DNA of 64,000 bases from Patescibacteria group bacterium (GCA_020148025.1 JAHCRH010000001.1:12652-76651), one strand, 5' to 3'. Counted from the first letter of the stretch, positions 26,847 to 61,125 are shown. Program-made: numbers and translations. Notes: generated from the sequence alone by a model not told the origin.

Positions 26847-27746
26847 TTAGCGCTTCATTGTATAAATACTCCCCCCTAAATTTCTTACTTTACCTTTTAT
26901 TTCCATTATCGCAAGTGTACTCGCCACTGTCGCAGCTTCAAGTTTTGTTTTCTCAATAATTTTATCAATATACAAGGCATCTTCTTTTAGGGCTTCTAAA
27001 ATTAAATTTTCCTCTAAAGTTTCTCCTTCAACGAGAACAGTTCTCGTTGATTTTATTGGTAAGTTTAATTCTTTTAAAATATCGTTGGCGCTTTCTACTA
27101 GTTTGGCTCCTTTTTTAATCAAGAGATGACAACCTTTTGAATTTGAGGAATGAATTGACCCGGGAATAGCAAAAATCTTCCGATTCTGTGTTTTTGCCCA
27201 ATCAGCAGTGATTAAGGCTCCAGATTTTTGTTTTGCTTCAATAACTAAAACCCCTAAACTTAATCCAGAAATTATTCTATTTCTTTGAGGGAAACTAAAT
27301 TGAGTTCCTCGAGTCCCGGGTTCATATTCAGAAATTAAACAGCCGCCTAATTCTAAAATTTTTTTAGCTAATTTTAGATTAGATTAAGGGTAAATGATTT
27401 TTTCATCAAGTCCAGTGCCCAAAACAGCAATTGTCCTTTTCCCTCTCTCGATTGTTGCCTGGTGAACAAAAGTATCAATGCCAGGAGCTAAACCCGAAAC
27501 AATAGTCAATCCGGCTTCGGCTAAGTCTCCGGCAATTTCTAAAGCAATTCTTTTTCCATAGGGAGAAAATCTTCTAGTGCCAACAATTGCAAAACGAGAT
27601 TCTTCCCGCCACAGGCGAGGCTCGTCCATGTGGGCGGCGGCCTTTAATTTACCTAGATAATAAAGAATTTTTGGTGGATTTTTAATCTTCTTTAAAAGTT
27701 TTGGATAATTTTTGTCATTTAAATCGATAGTTTTAATATCTTCCAT
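26847..27746 (-). pseudogene. dprA: DNA processing protein DprA/Smf interrupted by one in-frame TAA
   Basis: N-terminal 120 codons (27384-27746), in-frame TAA at 27384-27386, then 87 codons 'LGGCLISEYEPGT...FPQRNRIISGLSLGVLVIEAKQKSGALITA...AIPG', contiguous with the C-terminal 91 codons (26847-27122). Confidence 0.6.
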
Positions 27747-35766: not shown

Positions 35767-36969
35767 ATGGCTCGGATCATAACCGGTTTAGATATTGGAA
35801 CAAGAACTATAAAAACTTTGATCTGCCAAAAAAAATCAAGTGAATTGGATCTTGAGGTTTTGGGTCAGAGTAAAGAAATTTCCTCTGGTGTAAGAAAAGG
35901 AGTAGTGATTAATATTGGAGAGGTTGCTGAGATTATTAAATCTTCTATTGATAAAACTCAAGAAATTTCTAATAAAAAAATTAAATCAGTTTTTGTTAAT
36001 GTTGGGGGAGCTCATATTTTTTCTACCACTTCTCACGGTCTAATCTCAGTCTCGCGAGCCGATCAGAAAATATCTCAGGAAGATATTGAGAGGGTACTTC
36101 AGGCCGCTCAGACTTTTTCTCTTCCTTCAAATAAAGAAATTTTGTCAGTTTTCCCCAAGGAATTCACCCTTGATAACGAGAAAGGGATAAAAGAACCTTT
36201 AGGAATGAAAGGAGTAAGGTTGGAGGTAGGAGTTTTAGTTCTCGGAGGTTTTTCTCCTTATTTAAAAAATTTGACTCAGGCTGTTTTAGATGCCGGTGTC
36301 CAAATTGATGATTTGATTTTAACTCCCTTAGCTAGTTCGAGAGCAGTCTTGACTCCCCGAGAAAAAGAATTAGGGGTGGCTCTTTTGGATATTGGGGCAG
36401 GAACTACTGGGTTAGCTGTATTTGAAGAAGGTGATTTAATTCAGACAACCATTTTGCCAATTGGTTCAGCTCATATTACCAATGATATTGCTATTGGTCT
36501 TAGATGTGATATTGATACGGCTGAAAAAATAAAATTAGAATCAGGTGCTTGCATTTTCAAAGGGGTTGATAAAAAGAAAAAAATTGAGACCATTTCTGGA
36601 GAGATCTTGATTTTTTCTCAGAAGATGTTAAGTCGAGTTATTGAAGCTAGAGTTTCTGAAATTTTTGAAGAGATAAACAAAGAATTGAAAAAAATTTCCC
36701 GTCGAGCTTTACTTCCCGGAGGCACAGTTTTAACTGGTGGGGGAGCAAAGTTGCCAAAGATTAAAGATTTAGCTAAAAAAGAATTAAGGTTGCCTTGTCG
36801 AATTGGAGTTCCTCAGGGTTTTTCTTCTCCTTTGGAAGATCCAGAACTATCAACTGTTTGTGGTTTAGTTCTTTTGGGAGCCGATCTTGAGACTGAAAGA
36901 ACTTTTCCTGCTTTTGGGAAAGAAATTACTTCTCGATTAAAAAAGATATTTAAAATTTTTTTACCTTAA
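35767..36969 (+). CDS. ftsA: cell division protein FtsA
   Basis: 'ITGLDIGTRTIKTLI', actin-fold ATPase, 400 aa. Confidence 0.8.
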   Translation: MARIITGLDIGTRTIKTLICQKKSSELDLEVLGQSKEISSGVRKGVVINIGEVAEIIKSSIDKTQEISNKKIKSVFVNVGGAHIFSTTSHGLISVSRADQKISQEDIERVLQAAQTFSLPSNKEILSVFPKEFTLDNEKGIKEPLGMKGVRLEVGVLVLGGFSPYLKNLTQAVLDAGVQIDDLILTPLASSRAVLTPREKELGVALLDIGAGTTGLAVFEEGDLIQTTILPIGSAHITNDIAIGLRCDIDTAEKIKLESGACIFKGVDKKKKIETISGEILIFSQKMLSRVIEARVSEIFEEINKELKKISRRALLPGGTVLTGGGAKLPKIKDLAKKELRLPCRIGVPQGFSSPLEDPELSTVCGLVLLGADLETERTFPAFGKEITSRLKKIFKIFLP

Positions 36970-51143: not shown

Positions 51144-51959
51144 TTGAGATTGACAGAGACCCGGTCTCTGTTGGATGAAATGATTTCTATCAAATCAAAA
51201 AAGGAAATTGAGATAATGAGAGAGGGTGGTAAAATTCTGGCAAAAATTATGAAAGAGTTAGAAAAGATGGTCAGACCAGGAATTACCACCAAAAAATTGG
51301 ATAGGCTCGCTGAGAGCCTTATTTTAAAATATGGGAAATGCTCATTTGAAGGTTATAATGGTTTCCCGACTTGTCTTTGTACCTCAATAAATGAAGAAAT
51401 TGTTCACGGCGTCCCATCCAATAGAATTTTGAAAGAAGGAGATATTATTTCTCTTGACCTTGGTTTTTTTTACAAAGGATTTCATTCTGACATGGCAGTC
51501 ACTTTAGCAGTTGGAAAAGTGAAGCCTGAACTTTTGAAATTAATTAAGGTGACAAAAAAAGCTTTAAAGAGAGCCTTAAGAAAAGTTCGGCCGGGAAATA
51601 CTTTTGGTGATATTGGAAACAGTATTCAGAGATATGTTGAGGGTCAGGGATTTAATGTAATTAGGGAGCTTTGTGGTCATGGAATTGGCAAAGATCTACA
51701 CGAAGACCCTCAAGTATTGAATTATGGCAAAAGAAGGACCGGGCCTGAGCTTGTCGAGGGTATGACATTCTGCATTGAGCCTATGGTATCAACGGGAGAT
51801 TTCAGAATAAAGAAAACAACCCCGAAGCAGAGCAAGCTCGCTACGGGGCAAGAAAATGGCTATAGTTATCAAACTGTTGATGGTTCAATATCGGCCCATT
51901 TTGAACATACAGTGGCAGTAACAAAAAATGGAGTAGAGATCTTGACAATTTCAAAATAA
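51144..51959 (+). CDS. map: methionine aminopeptidase type I
   Basis: 'MISIKSKKEIEIMREGG', metal ligands; start probably at internal Met near 51180. Confidence 0.9.
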   Translation: MRLTETRSLLDEMISIKSKKEIEIMREGGKILAKIMKELEKMVRPGITTKKLDRLAESLILKYGKCSFEGYNGFPTCLCTSINEEIVHGVPSNRILKEGDIISLDLGFFYKGFHSDMAVTLAVGKVKPELLKLIKVTKKALKRALRKVRPGNTFGDIGNSIQRYVEGQGFNVIRELCGHGIGKDLHEDPQVLNYGKRRTGPELVEGMTFCIEPMVSTGDFRIKKTTPKQSKLATGQENGYSYQTVDGSISAHFEHTVAVTKNGVEILTISK

Positions 51960-52034: not shown

Positions 52035-52820
52035 ATGCCAGACTACAACCCACCCACCACGTCCTCCCATTCTTCGCTTCGCTCAGAACGAGCCCCTGTT
52101 TATTTATCTGTTATTATCCCTGCCTATAATGAGGAAGAGAGATTACCAGAGACTTTGCGAGAGATTGATAAATATTTAAAGACAAAAGATTATGAATCTG
52201 AAATTATTGTTGTTTCTGATGGTTCAACCGATAGAACGGTTGAGGTTGTTAAAAATTTGATGCCAGAAATTAAAAACCTGAGATTAATTGAATTTGAAAA
52301 AAAGAGGGGAAAGGGATTTGGAGTTCGTCAGGGAATGTTAAAAGCCTCAGGAAAATATCGGGTTTTTACTGATGCTGATAATTCAACCTCAATCGATCAG
52401 ATTGAGAAAATGTGGCCGGAATTTGAGTCAGGTTTCGATATCGTCATTGGTTCAAGAGATATAAAAGGAGCTGTAATTGCCGTTCCCCAGACCTGGTTTA
52501 GAAGAAGATTAGGGGACATTTTTAATTTAATTTCGCAGGTAATTTCTGGTCTCTTGGGGATCTGGGATACTCAATGTGGATTTAAGGGGTTTACTAAAAA
52601 AGCGGCAGAGGATATTTTTTCAAAGGCGACGATTGATCGTTTCGCCTTTGATGTTGAGGTTTTAATTCTGGCAAAAAAACTTGGATATAAATTCAAGGAA
52701 ATCCCGGTAGTCTGGATAAATGACCCAGGAAGCAAAGTGAAATTCAGATCAATGGTAGAGATGTTAATTGATGTATTCAAAATAAGATTAAATTTTATTA
52801 AAAATATATATAAAATCTGA
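52035..52820 (+). CDS. family 2 glycosyltransferase (dolichyl-phosphate sugar synthase-like)
   Basis: 'LSVIIPAYNEE', 'DADN'; GC-rich N-terminal extension. Confidence 0.8.
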   Translation: MPDYNPPTTSSHSSLRSERAPVYLSVIIPAYNEEERLPETLREIDKYLKTKDYESEIIVVSDGSTDRTVEVVKNLMPEIKNLRLIEFEKKRGKGFGVRQGMLKASGKYRVFTDADNSTSIDQIEKMWPEFESGFDIVIGSRDIKGAVIAVPQTWFRRRLGDIFNLISQVISGLLGIWDTQCGFKGFTKKAAEDIFSKATIDRFAFDVEVLILAKKLGYKFKEIPVVWINDPGSKVKFRSMVEMLIDVFKIRLNFIKNIYKI

Positions 52821-52821
52821 T

Positions 52822-53865
52822 ATGAAACCTAAAAAAAAGACCAAAGGTAAAATAAGATTCCCATCTGAGCTTCGATTTGATTTGGTTTCGAGAGATTGGG
52901 TTATCATTGCAACTGGCAGGGCTAGAAGGCCGGAAACCTTCAAAAGAGAAAAGAGATTCAAAAAAGTACCTCCTCGTAAGACTTGTCCCTTCTGCCAAAT
53001 TAAAAATTTAGAAAACCCCCTACTTATTTTTGCTCAAGGAAAAAAAATCCCCGGTCAAAAAATTCCTAAGAATTGGACAACGATTATTATTCCAAATAAA
53101 TTTCCTGCTCTTTTTCCTCACCCTAAATTAAACAAAAAGATTGAAGGTGGTCTTTATCAGACAATGAATGCAGTGGGTTTTCATGAAATAGTGGTTACTG
53201 AAAATCATAAAAGGTCAATAGGTCAGTTTAAGGTAGAGGAGGTAAAAGAAGTTATTGATGCCTATTACAAGAGATATTCAGAATTGATGAAAAAACCATT
53301 TGTAAATTATGTTTCTATATTTCACAACCATGGGGCTGAAGCAGGAGCTTCAATCTTTCATCCCCATTCTCAAATCATCACCACCCCTCTTATTGATGTC
53401 GATTTAAGCAGGGCTCTTTTTAATTCAAAGAAATATTTCAAGACTCATAAAAAATGCGTTTATTGTCAAATGGGTAAATGGGAAAGGAAAACCCAAAAGA
53501 GGATTGTTTTTGAAAATGAAGATTTTTTAGTTTTATGTCCTTTTGCCTCAAAGGCCGCCTTCCAAATTATAATCTCTCCAAAAAAACACTCAGCCTATTT
53601 TGAAAGAATAACTGAAAGAGAAAAATGGACTTTGGCCGAAGCCTTCAAGATGGCCTTGGGTAAACTTTATAAGGCCCTAAATGATCCGGCTTATAACTTT
53701 TATTTACACACTGCCCCCTGTGATGGAAAGAAGTATGATCATTATCACTGGCACTGGACGATTTTACCAAAAACATCAATTTGGGCAGGATTTGAAATTG
53801 GAACAAGAATGGAGATTTCCACCATTGAGCCAGAGAAAGCAGCCGAATATTTGAGAAAACAATAA
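52822..53865 (+). CDS. galT: galactose-1-phosphate uridylyltransferase
   Basis: 'FHPHSQI' HIT-like motif; zinc Cys/His 'CPFCQ'. Confidence 0.8.
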   Translation: MKPKKKTKGKIRFPSELRFDLVSRDWVIIATGRARRPETFKREKRFKKVPPRKTCPFCQIKNLENPLLIFAQGKKIPGQKIPKNWTTIIIPNKFPALFPHPKLNKKIEGGLYQTMNAVGFHEIVVTENHKRSIGQFKVEEVKEVIDAYYKRYSELMKKPFVNYVSIFHNHGAEAGASIFHPHSQIITTPLIDVDLSRALFNSKKYFKTHKKCVYCQMGKWERKTQKRIVFENEDFLVLCPFASKAAFQIIISPKKHSAYFERITEREKWTLAEAFKMALGKLYKALNDPAYNFYLHTAPCDGKKYDHYHWHWTILPKTSIWAGFEIGTRMEISTIEPEKAAEYLRKQ

Positions 53866-53869
53866 ATTT

Positions 53870-54682
53870 TTGATAATGGGCCAAAAAAGTTTCACTCTAA
53901 TTGAGCTTATGGTAGTTATTGCCATTGTTGGATTAATTGCCAGTATTGTTTTGGTTAGTTTAAGAGGAGCAAGGCAAAGAGCAAGAATTGCTGCCGGTAT
54001 GCAGTTTTCTGATTCCCTAAGAGCTGGCTTATCTGATGCTATAACTGGTTGGTGGAGCCTTGATGAAGGAACAGGAAATACAGCTGGAGATACTTGGGGA
54101 GGAAATAATGGAACAATTTATGGCGACAATTACTGGACAACAGAAGGGATAAGAGAAGGAGCTCTGAGTTGTAGTGGAAATGATTATGTCAGGATTAATA
54201 ATGTTCAAGTTGATACTGCAAGTGGAGCCCAAAATACGGTTGAGTTTTGGATGAATTGGACTGGTACTAACAGTCAGATGCCAATGGGTTGGGACATTTA
54301 TGACCTGTGGTTAATAGACGGTTGTTTTGGTTTTAATACATCAGAAAATAATGCTTTAGGAGTTTCCTGGGATGGCTTAGTTAATAACTGGATTCATGTT
54401 GCTGCAATTTTTTACAACGGAGCGCCATCAAGCACAAATAATGAATTATATATCAATGGAAAAAAGCAAAGTATTTATTGGTGTCGTGGTAGCGGAGGTT
54501 CCTCTAGCAGCGTGACTACAACAGTTCAAATAAGCGGGTGGCCCACCAATGCCGCTTATCGTTTCAGCGGTCTTATTGATGAATTCAAGATTTATAACCG
54601 AGGCCTTACTGCTTTAGAAATTCAAAAGAGATATGCCGAAGGGTTGGAGAAATATAAGGACTTTGTCTTAAAAAAGCTCTGA
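53870..54682 (+). CDS. type IV pilin-like protein with C-terminal LamG_3 (concanavalin-A-like lectin) domain
   Basis: prepilin N-terminus 'GQKSFTLIELMVVIAIVGLIASIV'; LamG_3 signature 'GLIDEFKIYNRGLTALEI'. Confidence 0.7.
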   Translation: MIMGQKSFTLIELMVVIAIVGLIASIVLVSLRGARQRARIAAGMQFSDSLRAGLSDAITGWWSLDEGTGNTAGDTWGGNNGTIYGDNYWTTEGIREGALSCSGNDYVRINNVQVDTASGAQNTVEFWMNWTGTNSQMPMGWDIYDLWLIDGCFGFNTSENNALGVSWDGLVNNWIHVAAIFYNGAPSSTNNELYINGKKQSIYWCRGSGGSSSSVTTTVQISGWPTNAAYRFSGLIDEFKIYNRGLTALEIQKRYAEGLEKYKDFVLKKL

Positions 54683-54687
54683 TTGAA

Positions 54688-55236
54688 GTGTTTAAACGAA
54701 TCTTTAAATATCTTCTGATGATGCAACAAAAATCATTCACTCTCATCGAACTTTTAGTAGTCATTGCCATTATCGGGCTTTTAGCTTCGATTGTGTTTAT
54801 TAGTCTGGCAGGGGTAAGGGCAAGAGCAAGGGATGCCAGAATTCTTCTTGATTTAAGACAAATTAAAACTATAGCCGCAATGATTAACAGTGATTATAAT
54901 TCCTATGCTAATTTGTGTGCTGTCGATTTGACTCTTAACGAAAATGCCCCCGCTCCTTATGGAAAACAGCTAGAGTTAATTGAAGACGATCTTACCAAAC
55001 AGCAAGGGAGGTCACCTCTTATTATGCTTTGCGTTGCTGCTACCTCTAGGTATTGTGTATCCGCAGTTTCATCTACTTTTGATTTCATTTCAGAAGATTA
55101 TCACTCTTGGTTTTGTACGGACTCTGATGGGAGGAGTGAGTTTAGATTTTACTGCTGGGACGAGTCCACTGACACCCCTACTGATAGATGCCTAGAACAC
55201 AAAGCATTTCCTCCACCCCCACCCCCACCTCCATAA
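54688..55236 (+). CDS. type IV pilin-like protein, Cys-rich, C-terminal poly-Pro tail
   Basis: 'QQKSFTLIELLVVIAIIGLLASIV'; ends 'FPPPPPPPP' from (ccaccc)n. Confidence 0.7.
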   Translation: MFKRIFKYLLMMQQKSFTLIELLVVIAIIGLLASIVFISLAGVRARARDARILLDLRQIKTIAAMINSDYNSYANLCAVDLTLNENAPAPYGKQLELIEDDLTKQQGRSPLIMLCVAATSRYCVSAVSSTFDFISEDYHSWFCTDSDGRSEFRFYCWDESTDTPTDRCLEHKAFPPPPPPPP

Positions 55237-55300
55237 AGCAGTGTCAGTTGGTATTACACAAGGAAAATAGAAAATAAGGTTATTCTCATTTTTTTAATTT

Positions 55301-56056
55301 ATGAAACCATTAATTGTAGCAAATTGGAAATGCAACCCTCAAACTCTAAAAGGAGCTAAGCTCCTTTTTAATTCGATAAAAAGAGGAATGAAAAAAATTA
55401 GGAATGTCGAGGTGGTAATTTGCCCCCCCTTTGTATATTTATTGACAAGCGACAAGCGACAAGCGACAAAGATAAAATTAGGTGGACAGAACTGTTTTTG
55501 GAAGGGAAAAGGACCCTTTACTGGAGAAGTTTCCCCAAAGCAGCTTTTAAATTTTGGCTGCAAATATGTAATTTTAGGGCATTCCGAAAGGAGAATCTAT
55601 TTCGATGAGACCGATGAAATGATAAATAAAAAAATAAAGGCTGCGATATCAGTAAAATTAAATCCAATTTTTTGTATTGGGGAAACTAAAGAGGAACGAG
55701 AAAAAGGCCAGACTCAAAGTATTTTAAAGTCTCAGATCGAAAAAGGTCTTAAGAAAGTTTCAAAAAAGGAGATCGAAAAGATTACAATTGCCTACGAGCC
55801 CGCCTGGGCGATTGGAACTGGAAAACCTTGTGACACTGAAGAAGCCCAAAAAATGAGTTTGCTTATTAGAAAGATGATGGCTAGAAAATATTCTCTTTCG
55901 ATTGCTAAGAAACTAAGAATGATTTACGGAGGCAGTGTCAATAGTAAAAATGCCAGAGACTATATAAAAGAAGCCGATTTCCAGGGACTTTTAATTGGCG
56001 GAGCCTCTTTAGATCCCAAAGAGTTTATTAAAATTGTGAAAACAATTTCTGCGTAG
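55301..56056 (+). CDS. tpiA: triosephosphate isomerase
   Basis: 'ANWKCN', 'GHSERR', 'AYEPAWAIGTG'; contains (gacaagc)x3 tandem repeat. Confidence 0.95.
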   Translation: MKPLIVANWKCNPQTLKGAKLLFNSIKRGMKKIRNVEVVICPPFVYLLTSDKRQATKIKLGGQNCFWKGKGPFTGEVSPKQLLNFGCKYVILGHSERRIYFDETDEMINKKIKAAISVKLNPIFCIGETKEEREKGQTQSILKSQIEKGLKKVSKKEIEKITIAYEPAWAIGTGKPCDTEEAQKMSLLIRKMMARKYSLSIAKKLRMIYGGSVNSKNARDYIKEADFQGLLIGGASLDPKEFIKIVKTISA

Positions 56057-56143
56057 CTGTTAAATCTCAGAAGTGTCAATAGAGTTAAACTCTAATTTAA
56101 AAGCTTGACTTTTTTGTGCTTTTTAGTATTTTAATAGAATAGT

Positions 56144-56824
56144 ATGGATAAATTTTTAAAAGGTTATTTTTATAATCCCACTCGAGGAAATTTGAAAATC
56201 AAGGAGGTGATGGAGGAAATGTTAAGCTACATGAAGGAGAAACCAGAAAAGTTTTACGATATTATTGTTGGTTGTGATTCTTCCTCTGGAGAGAAATTCA
56301 ATTTCCCAGTGGCAGTGGTTATTTTAAGAGTAGGGGAAGGAGGGAGATTTTTTCTTAAAAAAATAAATTATCCTCCATCTCTAAGAAAAAAATTTTCCAA
56401 TTGGAAAATGCGAGTTTTGGAAGAAGTTTTATTATCCTGTGAATTAGCTCTATTCTTAAGAGAGAACTTTGAGAAAAAGATAAAAAGTGAATCAAATGCT
56501 TTTGATAAAAAGCCAGAAGGGGGTCGGGAAAACTGGGTGTTTTCCCGTGGTGGAAACAGGGAGGCTGAAAGCCGACCGCCAGAACCGCAAGGTTCTGGGG
56601 AGCTGAGCGAAGCGAGCCCAAAGGGCAAGCGCCAGCCGAAGGCTGGAGAAGCGAAGCAACCTTTTAATTATCAACTTCGTTATATTCATGCTGATATTGG
56701 AGAGCACGGTCAGACAAGAGATATGATAAAAGAAGTTACTGGTTTAATCCGGGGAAATGGCTTTGAGCCAAAGATTAAACCAGAGTCCTATGTAGCTTCA
56801 ACGGTGGCTGATAGATACAGCTAA
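56144..56824 (+). CDS. YkuK/DUF458-family RNase H-like protein carrying an in-frame family-A element insertion of about 150 nt
   Basis: 'IIVGCDSS' ; insertion encodes 'PEGGRENWVFSRGGNREAESRPPEPQGSGELSEASPKGKRQPKAGEAKQP'. Confidence 0.6.
   Translation: MDKFLKGYFYNPTRGNLKIKEVMEEMLSYMKEKPEKFYDIIVGCDSSSGEKFNFPVAVVILRVGEGGRFFLKKINYPPSLRKKFSNWKMRVLEEVLLSCELALFLRENFEKKIKSESNAFDKKPEGGRENWVFSRGGNREAESRPPEPQGSGELSEASPKGKRQPKAGEAKQPFNYQLRYIHADIGEHGQTRDMIKEVTGLIRGNGFEPKIKPESYVASTVADRYS
56517..56660 (+). repeat. GC-rich palindromic element, family A copy, inside the ykuK-like ORF
   Basis: 'gggtcgggaaaactgggtgttttcccgtggtggaaacagggagg...ccagaaccgcaaggttctgg...gcgaagcg'. Confidence 0.7.
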
Positions 56825-56925
56825 TTAGTATGTAGTATGTAGATAGTAGATGGTTGAGCCGCCTTTTTGGCGGCCCTTTAACTTATTTGAAAAAATCTTC
56901 TTATTTAGTAAGATTAGAATAGAAA

Positions 56926-58707
56926 ATGATTTCTAAAGACTTGCGAAAAAATTTTTTAGATTTTTTTGAAAAAAGAGGACACAAAATTGTGGCCTCCGGT
57001 TCGCTTTTACCGTCTGACCCTACTGTTTTGTTTACTACCGCTGGCATGCAGCAGTTTACTTTATATTTGGCAGGGGGAAGAGATCCTATCGAGAGGTTTG
57101 GAACAAGACACTTGGCTTCTTGTCAGAAATGTTTTAGGACCGATGACATAGATAAAGTAGGTGACGATATCCATCACACCTTTTTTGAAATGTTGGGAAA
57201 TTGGTCAATTGGTCAAGACCAAGAAAAAGGTTATTTTAAAAAAAGAATGATTAAATACGCCTTAGAATTTTTGGTTGGTGTTTTAAATATAGATAAAAAT
57301 AGAATTTGGGTAACTATTTTTAAAGGAGAAAAAAACATACCAAAAGATGAAAGGTCAAAAAAAATTTGGCAGGAAAACGGAGTTTTGAGAGAAAGAATAG
57401 GAGAATTTGGTATAGAGGAAAATTTCTGGGGACCGGTTGGGAAAACAGGTCCCTGCGGTCCTACTTCAGAAGTTTTTTATGATAGGGGAAAAGAATTTGG
57501 TTGCAAAAATCCTGACTGTGGTCCAAATTGCCATCATTGTCAACGTTTTGTAGAAATTTGGAATTTGGTTTTTATGGAATATATCAAAGATGAAGATGGA
57601 AATTGTCGACTTTTGTCTCAAAAGAACATAGATACTGGAATTGGATTTGAAAGATTGGTCGCCATTTTACAAAAAAAACCCTCAGCTTATGAAACTGATC
57701 TTTTCTTGCCAATCATTCAAGAATTGGGAAAAATTTCCTTTAAAAAATACGAAGAAGAAAAAAGAAACTTCAGAATTTTAGCCGATCATATTAGAGGAAC
57801 AGTTTTTTTGATTGCAGAAGGAATTTTCCCTTCAAATGTGGAGAGGGGATATGTTTTGCGAAGAATTTTAAGAAGAGCAATCAGATTCGGAAGGTTATTA
57901 AATCTACCTAAAAACTTTCTAATTCCCTTGGCTCAAAAAGTTATTGAAATTTACGAAGACACTTACCCTGAAGTGAAATCTAAAGAGACAGATATTTTAA
58001 CAATTTTACAAAATGAAGAAGAGAAATTTGAAAAAACCTTAGAAAAAGGTTTAAAACAATTTGAAAAGATTTCAGCTAAAGGAGATATCTCAGGAATTGA
58101 TGCCTTTCATCTCTTTGATACCTATGGGTTTCCTTTAGAATTGACTCAAGAATTAGCAAAAGAAAGAAAATTGGAAATTGATATTGAAGGATTTAAAGAA
58201 GCCTTTGAAGAACATCGGGAAATTTCTCGGGCAGGAGCAGAGAAAAAATTTGGAGGTGTAGGAAAGGAGGCAAGTTTCGAAGCTACTAAACTTCATACCG
58301 CAACTCATTTACTCCACACTGCCTTAAAAAAAATTTTAGGTCCCCATATTAGACAAATGGGTTCAGATATTACCTCCAAAAGACTTCGGTTTGATTTTTC
58401 CCATCCCCAAAAAATGACAGCTGAAGAGATTAAAAAAATTGAAGACTTGGTTAATCAAAAGATAAAAGAAGATTTAGTAGTTAAAAAAGAGGAGATGCGA
58501 TATGAAGAGGCGATAAAATCAGGCGCTTTAGCTTTTTTTAAGGAAAAGTACCCTGAAATTGTTAAAGTTTATTCAATTGGTAACTTTTCAAAAGAAATTT
58601 GTGCTGGCCCTCATATCAATAGAACTTCAGAACTTGGTAAATTTAAAATCGTTAAAGAAGAGTCATCTGGTGCGGGAATCAGAAGAATAAAAGCTATTTT
58701 AGAATAA
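56926..58707 (+). CDS. alaS: alanine--tRNA ligase, short form (catalytic plus editing domains, no C-Ala domain)
   Basis: 'FTTAGMQQF', editing 'HTATHLLH'. Confidence 0.85.
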   Translation: MISKDLRKNFLDFFEKRGHKIVASGSLLPSDPTVLFTTAGMQQFTLYLAGGRDPIERFGTRHLASCQKCFRTDDIDKVGDDIHHTFFEMLGNWSIGQDQEKGYFKKRMIKYALEFLVGVLNIDKNRIWVTIFKGEKNIPKDERSKKIWQENGVLRERIGEFGIEENFWGPVGKTGPCGPTSEVFYDRGKEFGCKNPDCGPNCHHCQRFVEIWNLVFMEYIKDEDGNCRLLSQKNIDTGIGFERLVAILQKKPSAYETDLFLPIIQELGKISFKKYEEEKRNFRILADHIRGTVFLIAEGIFPSNVERGYVLRRILRRAIRFGRLLNLPKNFLIPLAQKVIEIYEDTYPEVKSKETDILTILQNEEEKFEKTLEKGLKQFEKISAKGDISGIDAFHLFDTYGFPLELTQELAKERKLEIDIEGFKEAFEEHREISRAGAEKKFGGVGKEASFEATKLHTATHLLHTALKKILGPHIRQMGSDITSKRLRFDFSHPQKMTAEEIKKIEDLVNQKIKEDLVVKKEEMRYEEAIKSGALAFFKEKYPEIVKVYSIGNFSKEICAGPHINRTSELGKFKIVKEESSGAGIRRIKAILE

Positions 58708-58736
58708 AATTTCTATTTTGTGATATAATTAAAAGG

Positions 58737-59933
58737 ATGAAAGTCAAATTTCCTTTTTCGAAAGAAATCAAGCCGGAATATTTTTTAGCCTTAGATGTCG
58801 GGACCGAAGCAGTAAAGGCTTTAATTTTTTCTTCCCCTGCTCGCTCTGGCAAAAGCAGAAAAGAGGAAGGTGAAAAAATCATTGTCCGTGGGGCTTCTAC
58901 TCAATATTTCGAGCAATTTGGAGTTTTCAATACTAAGGGTCTTGGAGAAGAAATTCTCAAAAAAGCAATTTCAAAAGTAATTGAAGAAGTTCAGAAGAAG
59001 GCTCAGATAAAGACAGATGCTCTTTTTCTTGGTTTACCAGCTAATATTTTGAGAGGAAGAGTGGTGTCTCAAAATTTTAGAAGGAAAAATCAAAAAGAAA
59101 TTATTAGCGAGATCGAAAAGAGTCAAATTTATAAAGAGGTTTCAAATTCGGTTAAAGAAAAACTCTCTCAAGAATTCGCTCGAGAAGTAGGCCTCTTACC
59201 CAGAGATTTCTATTTTTCTAATCTAAAAATTCTGGAAATAAAGATTGATGGTTATGAAGTTTCTTCAATTCAGAGATTGAGCGGTAAAAATCTTGATTTT
59301 AAAGTTTTAGCTGTTTTTTTGTCAAGATATTATTTGGAGAAGGTCAAGAAGATTTGCCAAGATTTAGATTTAAAAATTTCTAAAATAATCCATCAGGCTG
59401 AAAATCTGCCCCTTTTTTTTCAAGACAAGAAGATAAATGCTATTTTCCTTGATATTGGCGGAGAATTAACAAAAATTTTTTTGGTGGAAAAGGGAAAACT
59501 AAAGAAAACCTCTGAATTTAAAAAGGGAGGGGTCGATTTTACTCGGAAGCTTTCCCAGATTTTAGGATTAAGTTTCCAAGAGGCAAGAGTTTTAAAACAC
59601 AATTATTCCCAGTTACTTTTGTCAGGAAAAACAAGAAAAAAGGTTAAAGAGATTTTTTCTGCTAATCTTCAAGATTGGTTTAAAAATTTAGAAGAAACTT
59701 TAAAGAAATTCTCCAAGAAATTATTTCCCTCTAATATTTTTCTTTTTGGTGGGGGAAGTCTCTTGCCAGAAATTCCAGAAATTTTAGAAAAAGGTGATTG
59801 GGCTGACTTTCCTTTTGTTTTCAAACCAAAGGTGAGACTTATCTATCCTAACGAGTTAAAGAATATTGAAGATAAAACTCAGGGTCTTAACAGTCCTCAA
59901 GAAATTTCCCTTCTTTTAATTTCTTATGAATAG
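58737..59933 (+). CDS. actin-fold ATPase, PilM-like / FtsA-like
   Basis: 'YFLALDVGTEAVKALIF', 'IFLFGGGSLLPEI'. Confidence 0.5.
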   Translation: MKVKFPFSKEIKPEYFLALDVGTEAVKALIFSSPARSGKSRKEEGEKIIVRGASTQYFEQFGVFNTKGLGEEILKKAISKVIEEVQKKAQIKTDALFLGLPANILRGRVVSQNFRRKNQKEIISEIEKSQIYKEVSNSVKEKLSQEFAREVGLLPRDFYFSNLKILEIKIDGYEVSSIQRLSGKNLDFKVLAVFLSRYYLEKVKKICQDLDLKISKIIHQAENLPLFFQDKKINAIFLDIGGELTKIFLVEKGKLKKTSEFKKGGVDFTRKLSQILGLSFQEARVLKHNYSQLLLSGKTRKKVKEIFSANLQDWFKNLEETLKKFSKKLFPSNIFLFGGGSLLPEIPEILEKGDWADFPFVFKPKVRLIYPNELKNIEDKTQGLNSPQEISLLLISYE

Positions 59934-61125
59934 AAAAATTTTTTTTGATATTTTGCCACCCAAAAAATTTGTCCAAAAGAAGATTAAAGAACAGAGAGTA
60001 TCTCGTTTTGGAGTATTTAAAAAAGGTTTGATTTTCGCTTGTTTATCTTTGATTTTACTGGGAATTATCGGCTATTTTGCTTTAGCTAAAGTAGAAATTG
60101 AGATTTGGCCGGAAACTGAGATTTTAAATTTTAATAAAGAGATTACCGCTAGCACTAAGACTTTTCAAGTAAATTTCTTGGAAGGGAGCATACCTGCAAG
60201 AATTTTTGAAATTGAAGAAAGTGCTTCCCAGGAATTTCCCTCTTCTGGCAAAATTGAAAAGAAAGCTGAGGGTACGATTCGAGTTTATAATAATTATCAT
60301 CTCTTAGTAGCTCTAAGGTCAGGAACTCGATTTCAGCCTCCTTTTGAGAAGGTGCTCTATTTTTGTTCACCTCAAAAAATAGTTATTCCGGCTAAAAGTT
60401 ATCTTGATATTAAGATAATTGCCTGTCGTCCTGGTGAAGGTGAAAAATATAATATTGGACCTTCTAAATTTTCTGTTCCCGGACTCAGTGGTACCGATTT
60501 GTTCTTTTATATTCATGGAGAGTCTTTTGAACCAATGACAGGAGGTGGAACAATCTCTCAAGTCACCGAAGATGATTTAGAAAGGGCAAAAAACATTTTA
60601 ACTGAAACGGCATTTACTCGAATAAATGAATCTTTAAAGAGCAAAATTCCAACTGACTTCATCCCGTTGGAGGAAGCAATAAAAGGAGAGATCTTAGAAA
60701 CTTTTCCAGAGGTTGAGCTAGGCGCTGAAGTTCAATCCTTTGAAGTTAAAGTAAAAGTAAAATCTAAAACCCTGGTTTTTAAAAAATCTGATCTCGAGAA
60801 TTTTGCTAAAGAATTTATTTCAGCCCAAATTCCAAAAGATAAGAAACTTCAGACCGAAAGTCTAAAAATTGACTTCCAAGCAGAATCAACCGACCTTGAA
60901 TCAGAAAAAACTGTTTTAAATTTAAAGTTCTCAGCCAAAATTTACTTGGATATTGACTCCTCTTTTCTTAGAGAGAACTTAAAAGGGAAGTCTTTGGAGG
61001 AGACTAAAATTATTTTAGAAAATCAAGCAGACATTATTAAAGCTCAAATAAGTGCTTGGCCATTTTGGGTAAGAAAAATTCCTCAGGATATTGAAAAAAT
61101 CGAATTGAAAATAAATTTGGATTAA
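59926..61125 (+). CDS. hypothetical membrane-anchored protein (possible pilus assembly partner)
   Basis: N-terminal TM 'LIFACLSLILLGIIGYFALA'. Confidence 0.45.
   Translation: MNRKIFFDILPPKKFVQKKIKEQRVSRFGVFKKGLIFACLSLILLGIIGYFALAKVEIEIWPETEILNFNKEITASTKTFQVNFLEGSIPARIFEIEESASQEFPSSGKIEKKAEGTIRVYNNYHLLVALRSGTRFQPPFEKVLYFCSPQKIVIPAKSYLDIKIIACRPGEGEKYNIGPSKFSVPGLSGTDLFFYIHGESFEPMTGGGTISQVTEDDLERAKNILTETAFTRINESLKSKIPTDFIPLEEAIKGEILETFPEVELGAEVQSFEVKVKVKSKTLVFKKSDLENFAKEFISAQIPKDKKLQTESLKIDFQAESTDLESEKTVLNLKFSAKIYLDIDSSFLRENLKGKSLEETKIILENQADIIKAQISAWPFWVRKIPQDIEKIELKINLD

Follow-up and report, generated by a model that had tools for sequence, protein, structure and literature searches.

The LamG pilin encoded in the window (the whole 64-kb stretch of DNA that was analysed) is a 268-aa prepilin in which, according to the structural model, a LamG/concanavalin-A-like beta-sandwich forms the pilin head in place of the usual one, a separate pilin beta-sheet module being absent. 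Its domain identities, its fold, its family membership and the conservation of Phe at +1 and Glu at +5 are established. By analogy with pilins described elsewhere, we consider it, with a probability of about 0.6, to be a low-abundance, tip-exposed adhesive type IV pilin that binds glycans, and an adhesive or tip-located role in carbohydrate binding, for example in host attachment, which the initial annotation had put forward, is the role that the comparisons made here support best. CPR/Patescibacteria attach to other microbes, how their hosts are recognised is poorly understood, and lectin-headed pilins are obvious candidates for host-recognition adhesins. The architecture is known and annotated in public databases, and the present find adds one member to it and no new principle; the serine at the predicted cleavage site, the replacement of the head and a LamG subtype common to a flagellin may be worth the notice of specialists.

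Gene, domains and head of the LamG pilin

An ORF is present on the plus strand at 53870-54682, as had been claimed, and the protein that it encodes is already deposited at NCBI (P0001, 268 aa, 100% identity) under the correct generic name 'prepilin-type N-terminal cleavage/methylation domain-containing protein [Patescibacteria group bacterium]'. The same 268-aa protein results from an ENA gene call made independently. The mechanical ORF begins at TTG 53870, and both the NCBI and the ENA calls begin at ATG 53876; the start was corrected to this ATG, which is the most likely one, the TTG probably not being used. Two prepilin-type N-termini were found in the 64-kb window, that of the LamG pilin and that of its downstream neighbour, and the codon-position composition (GC3), inspected as a check for horizontal transfer, is ordinary for both pilin genes. 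The features of the two genes are listed in Table 1.

Table 1. Coordinates in the window of the two prepilin genes and of the features predicted in their products.
Feature	Position	Strand	Evidence
LamG-headed prepilin gene, 268 aa plus stop	53876..54682	+	Pfam, NCBIfam, NCBI protein, ENA gene call
Leader peptide MGQKS, short and basic, Ser at -1 (codon AGT 53888-53890)	53876..53890	+	sequence; family column
Predicted mature N-terminus FTLIELMVV... and long alpha1 helix (residues 6-51), Glu at +5, Gly at +14	53891..54028	+	PF07963, TIGR02532, model, phmmer
LamG/concanavalin-A-like beta-sandwich (residues 56-240), modelled as pilin head	54041..54595	+	PF13385, model, Foldseek, profile matches
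C-terminal helix (residues 246-267), conserved EIQKxYAEGL	54611..54676	+	model, family consensus
Second prepilin, 172 aa from ATG 54718 (mechanical GTG start 54688), candidate major pilin	54718..55236	+	Pfam, NCBIfam, homologues, model
Poly-proline tail (PPPPPPPP, 8 Pro) at the C-terminus of the second pilin	55210..55233	+	sequence

The class III signal and prepilin helix that the initial annotation had recognised at the N-terminus are borne out by matches to PF07963 N_methyl (28.0 bits against a Pfam cut-off of 21.2) and to TIGR02532 (29.0 bits against an NCBIfam cut-off of 16.3), the N-terminal NCBIfam matches being of the GspG/GspH pseudopilin type, and by a helix modelled over residues 8-51. 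The remainder of the protein matches PF13385 Laminin_G_3 at residues 103-252 (E=1.1e-12, 48.8 bits against a gathering cut-off of 27.6), over profile positions 3-151 of 151. The string GLIDEFKIYNRGLTALEI, originally read as a LamG_3 signature, does lie inside this significant match and fits the family consensus GxIDEVRIYxxALxxxEI. Both Pfam families are thus above their curated cut-offs, and the AlphaFold model (pLDDT 89.4, pTM 0.84) likewise consists of alpha1 followed by a LamG/ConA-type beta-sandwich of more than a dozen strands at residues 56-240 and a C-terminal helix at residues 246-267. Among the weaker matches, NCBIfam TafC aligns with residues 172-257 (window 54389-54646) at E=2e-5, far below its cut-off; in the Tat-dependent fimbriae of haloarchaea, TafC is likewise a filament subunit that includes a LamG-like region.

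A Foldseek search against the PDB gave 221 hits with E<=0.001; those at the top are LamG-type jelly rolls with a probability of 1.0, namely AbnA domain 4 (a Geobacillus arabinanase), the lectin-like N-terminal subdomain of clostridial neurotoxin Hc and the lectin domain of a trans-sialidase. These top relatives of the head are non-catalytic modules that bind carbohydrates or gangliosides. Over positions 55-258, the family profile matches two solved LamG domains, 4QVS_A with E=1e-26 and 5HON with E=5e-20, and the LamG repeats of giant proteins match it from about 55 up to about 263-270. The C-terminal helix 246-267 is part of the LamG_3 repeat unit, and because the solved domains and the repeats of the giant proteins align from about position 55, all of the sequence after alpha1 represents one LamG unit. 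The gap between the end of alpha1 (residue 51) and the first LamG strand (residue 56) is about 4-5 residues long. The initial description as a pilin with a C-terminal LamG domain was therefore right as to the presence of LamG; the domain is not an add-on to a full pilin, since it begins about 5 residues past alpha1. A fixed packing of the helix on the head, with the sandwich seated on alpha1C, is suggested by the pTM of 0.84 and by the near-invariance of Phe44 (in alpha1C) and Trp60 in the 87-member alignment of the family.

Leader peptide and relatives of the LamG pilin

The hydrophobic N-terminus FTLIELMVVIAIVGLIASIVLV is present, with Phe at +1, Glu at +5 and a long alpha1. Phe, Thr, Leu, Ile and Glu stand in canonical order, and the cut is therefore predicted at MGQKS|FTLIE, which places Glu at +5; in phmmer alignments to solved pilins, residue 1 of the latter corresponds to Phe6 of the LamG pilin. 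The cut behind Phe that had been assigned earlier lies one residue too late.

In both pilins of the window the residue at -1 is Ser and not Gly or Ala (53888-53890 and 54733-54735), which is unusual because a 2023 review gives Gly or Ala as the invariable last residue of the leaders (PMC10191384). The -1 column of the LamG-pilin family (87 aligned members) holds Ser in 42, Ala in 23 and Gly in 19, so that Ser or Ala is found in 65 of the 87, while that of the small-pilin family to which the neighbour belongs (120 listed members) holds Gly in 109, Ser in eight and Ala in three, with the window copy and its closest relatives among the Ser-bearing members. A rough scan of pilin-like N-termini at other CPR loci gave 31 with Gly, four with Ala and one with Ser at this position. 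Since Ser, Ala and Gly alternate in one and the same column and both pilins of the organism use Ser, the alignments argue that Ser5|Phe6 may be a functional small-residue cleavage site; the peptidase of the lineage would accept Ser, because the neighbouring pilin, from a family with mostly Gly, has it as well. Phe at +1, Thr at +2, Ile at +4 and Glu at +5 are conserved in at least 85 of the 87 members (Phe and Glu in 86), and the conservation of Glu+5 and of the alpha1N assembly interface is in keeping with a polymerising subunit.

At least 244 homologues of the LamG pilin were retrieved; the majority are 260-290 aa long and combine the same two domains, and they come mostly from CPR bacteria. 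One longer relative (P0049, 361 aa) has a region of about 140 residues between alpha1 and LamG. The PF13385 superfamily as a whole is huge and functionally mixed, with 871,386 representatives at E<=0.001 in a profile search of a representative library, a result dominated by giant multi-LamG proteins. The closest relatives of the window protein carry a LamG subtype with the invariant motifs TVxFW..W.G, P(F/M)G(W), Y.L and GFNT, and the same subtype occurs in other contexts (P0063, P0036, P0023 and P0013), with 34-51% identity to the head encoded at 54041-54679. P0063 is a bacterial flagellin, in which Flagellin_N is followed by a LamG of this subtype, as the variable middle, and then by Flagellin_C. 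The subtype was also observed in a JGI 'flagellin-like' protein, whose hydrophobic N-terminal helix resembles an archaeal pilin signal, in a partial protein from an Aenigmatarchaeota MAG and in tandem-LamG proteins of Paenibacillus.

As judged from these sequences, the distribution hints that the LamG subtype may be a display module reused across filament types. A bolder proposal, which we regard as distinctly unlikely, is that the short CPR LamG pilins form a distinct subunit class, in which the LamG sandwich replaced the ancestral head and a relaxed peptidase cuts behind Ser or Ala, and that the subtype TVxFWxxWxG...MPFGW...YDL...FGFNT is a mobile 'display cassette' moving between type IV pilins, archaeal pilin-like proteins and the variable regions of flagellins. 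If it were true, different filaments would become the same kind of lectin fibre.

Proposed role, precedents and alternatives

We infer the following course of events. The hydrophobic alpha1N segment would insert the prepilin into the membrane, a prepilin peptidase would cut the five-residue leader MGQKS at Ser5|Phe6, and a type IV pilus machine, its genes lying elsewhere in the genome, would then extract the mature subunit (263 aa, 28.9 kDa). A small major pilin, for example the adjoining six-Cys pilin, would make up most of the filament, with the LamG subunit built in; because its head is bulky, this subunit would be rare and most likely placed at the tip, where its LamG domain may bind a glycan or polysaccharide carried by host cells or other surfaces. 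Homologues of pilB, pilT, pilM and pilC occur in most Patescibacteria phyla, and the patescibacterium TM7x has lectin-like minor pilins, its host binding being affected by sugars and host wall glycans (PMC11623550).

Both the architecture and its frequency in CPR bacteria are already in the literature, since Dataset S1 of Raynaud et al. (2021, PNAS) ranks IPR012902-PF13385 as the most frequent modular-pilin architecture, with 229 proteins; its representative in their Fig. 8 is A0A0G0IU57 of the CPR bacterium Ca. Magasanikbacteria, and PF13385 is cited there as a predicted carbohydrate-binding module (PMC8179133). The LamG pilin carries the same two signatures in the same order, that is, IPR012902 together with a domain that is not a pilus domain. 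Whereas the modular pilins so defined consist of a pilin module, a linker and a grafted module, the LamG pilin is without a complete pilin module. No IPR012902-PF13385 modular pilin from the CPR group has been experimentally characterised.

A proven lectin is known from PilC of S. sanguinis (PDB 7OA7/7OA8), whose ConA-like module binds glycans and which has been modelled in a tip complex (Shahin et al. 2023, PMC9934059). Like the LamG pilin, PilC combines a type IV pilin, its pilin moiety being unusually short, with a module of the ConA-like lectin/glucanase superfamily. PilC is, however, a protein of about 53 kDa with an extra Ig-like module, for which the LamG pilin (28.9 kDa, 268 aa) has no room, and it needs PilA for its stability and is encoded in a 22-kb pil cluster, whereas the LamG pilin gene is orphaned outside any pil cluster. 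PilC was absent from the best 60 sequence matches and from the best 50 fold matches of the LamG pilin, so that the analogy holds at the level of the superfamily only. Also from a CPR bacterium, TM7x (Nanosynbacter lyticus), are PilX1 and PilX2, with lectin-like beta-jelly-roll/propeller domains, a proposed role in host-glycan binding and non-canonical signals (Grossman et al. 2024 preprint, PMC11623550). The PilX1 domain is unrecognised by domain databases and the TM7x genes are located in pilus loci, unlike the LamG pilin; the phylum also differs, the names of neighbour-gene homologues suggesting a Parcubacteria/Nealsonbacteria-like organism for the window.

The best relatives of the head, 4QVS_A (from an S-layer domain-containing protein) and domain 4 of AbnA (5HON), cover the whole sandwich and are non-catalytic and associated with surfaces or carbohydrates, but they have about 20% identity and no pilin helix. 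Conversely, N. gonorrhoeae PilE (1AY2/2HI2) and the P. aeruginosa PAK pilin (1OQW) align with alpha1 from Phe1 and have Glu5 in common with it; such type IVa major pilins have a 4-5-stranded sheet on alpha1C and Gly at -1, where the LamG pilin has a beta-sandwich and Ser. The lollipop fold of type IVa major pilins is found in the neighbouring small pilin.

Several observations stand against the reading as a tip pilin. No PilB/PilT-type ATPase was found in the window, nor a platform protein PilC or a prepilin peptidase PilD among its ORFs of at least 110 aa, and the gene is isolated among housekeeping genes. The serine at -1 departs from the Gly/Ala rule (PMC10191384), PF13385 is of mixed function, and the adjacency to a small pilin is not kept in relatives. 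The orphan position of the gene and its relatives among housekeeping genes would also fit a surface-anchored binding protein that makes no long pilus, alpha1 tethering LamG in the membrane or in a short pseudopilus where it captures polysaccharides or nutrients; we consider this reading rather unlikely. It resembles T2SS pseudopili or the archaeal sugar-binding proteins with class III signals that are known as the 'bindosome' of Sulfolobus. The GspG/GspH type of the N-terminal matches agrees with it, the prevalence of Ser or Ala at -1 (65 of 87 family members) might reflect inefficient or divergent processing, and the accessory-domain pilins of TM7x are likewise without predicted PilD signals (PMC11623550). 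What counts against a mere tether is that 86 of 87 members retain Glu+5 together with the entire alpha1N interface, as expected of polymerising subunits, that the co-resident gene of the major-pilin type also has Ser at -1, and that T2SS secretins are not known from CPR bacteria.

If the subunit does polymerise, it might instead be the major repeating subunit of a filament of its own, a LamG-coated multivalent lectin fibre. The uniform compact design (alpha1 plus one rigid head, pTM 0.84), the conserved, presumed contact residues between alpha1C and the head, the tandem duplicates at the locus L008 and the flagellin P0063, which displays the same LamG subtype along a flagellar filament, speak for such a fibre, but the head, with about 210 residues after alpha1, exceeds the heads of known major pilins. 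Moreover, the adjoining gene encodes a canonical small pilin whose family has more than 6,000 matches, and bulky pilins have precedents as tip caps (PMC8179133, PMC9934059), which makes this reading very unlikely in our estimate. An enzyme on a pilin anchor, such as a glucanase or a sialidase-type glycoside hydrolase, might be expected from the hydrolases that exist in the ConA-like lectin/glucanase superfamily and from a weak sub-threshold Pfam match to a sialidase N-terminal domain (E=0.14). That match, besides being below the cut-off, is to a non-catalytic lectin domain, the best structural relatives are all binding modules, and a GH16-type E-x-D-x-(x)-E motif was not seen on reading the sequence; the enzymatic reading is extremely improbable and was rejected.

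Neighbouring pilin and genomic context

The next gene had been noted as encoding a second, Cys-rich pilin-like protein with a poly-Pro tail, and this description stands: the product matches PF07963 N_methyl with 32.9 bits, contains six Cys and ends in the proline run listed in Table 1. Of 8,000 candidates scored, more than 6,300 proved to be homologues, mostly of about 150 aa and from CPR bacteria wherever the source was named, and the six Cys are kept in 107 of the 120 listed homologues. A Pro-rich tail is common, among these listed homologues, only to the nearest relatives (PPPPPP in P0123 and PPGPIPPP in P0122). The model (pLDDT 91) displays the canonical lollipop, with alpha1 at residues 8-59, an alpha-beta-loop helix and a beta-sheet; its best PDB fold matches are weak ones to gonococcal pilin. 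It is plausible that this protein is a major pilin.

The window has a GC content of 35.5% and carries genes for ribosomal proteins, tRNA synthetases and other housekeeping functions typical of a CPR/Patescibacteria genome. Upstream of the pilin pair are genes for a GT2 glycosyltransferase and a GalT/HIT-type uridylyltransferase, with gaps of 1, 10 and 35 nt, and downstream of it are tpiA, an RNase-H-like gene, alaS, a divergent FtsA-like gene and a gene for a conserved CPR membrane protein. An operon shared with the upstream GT2 and GalT-like genes, as a hint of pilin glycosylation, was considered and dropped, as this synteny is not kept in relatives. Scans for promoters and terminators gave no more sites than in shuffled sequence. 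The stretch of about 9 kb (52035-61125) between map (51144-51959) and rpsM (61832) breaks the usual secY-adk-map-(infA-rpmJ)-rpsM order.

The LamG pilin and its relatives are placed among housekeeping genes, outside pilus clusters. An orthologue with 75% identity (L002, 10001-10804 of its locus) splits the normally adjacent pair pheS and pheT, from which it is separated by 0-1 nt; another relative (L004) lies beside gatB, a third (L006) follows ftsA-ftsZ-thioredoxin with a T2SSE ATPase 5 kb off, and a tandem pair (L008) lies between groEL and dnaG. Neither the adjacency to a small pilin nor the upstream sugar genes were kept as conserved partners at the loci of these relatives.

A tblastn search with a CPR T2SSE ATPase found no PilB/PilT-type (T2SSE) ATPase in the 64-kb window, which is only a fraction of the genome, and neither PilC nor PilD was found among its ORFs of at least 110 aa, whose translations were read, the unassigned ones being scanned against Pfam and NCBIfam. 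Two genes of the neighbourhood were examined and rejected as components of such a machine. The FtsA-like protein encoded at 58737-59933 matches PilM models with 16-21 bits against cut-offs of 27 and 133; it is a highly divergent actin-fold protein (PF14450, 46 bits) for which the ftsA model is far below its cut-off, a bona fide FtsA being encoded separately at 35767-36969. The 399-aa membrane protein encoded at 59926-61125, whose gene overlaps the FtsA-like gene by 8 nt, is not PilN; it falls into a conserved family in which every named member comes from a CPR bacterium, and a few of its homologues match Baseplate_J (PF04865).

Three further genes of the window deserve mention. The RNase-H-like protein encoded at 56144-56824 matches PF04308 (124.6 bits) in two stretches that, on reading the translation, seem to have about 60 residues of charged, low-complexity sequence inserted between them (approximately residues 120-178). 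A gene at 26847-27746 on the minus strand, named dprA (DNA-processing protein A, natural transformation) by eye from its translation, is one frame of about 299 codons with a single in-frame TAA at 27384-27386 after ...DEKIIYP, which could be a nonsense mutation, the mark of a pseudogene or a sequencing error. Finally, the gene at 374-2029 encodes a 551-aa protein with an N-terminal membrane segment and DUF7619/DUF11 repeats, which is probably another cell-surface protein.
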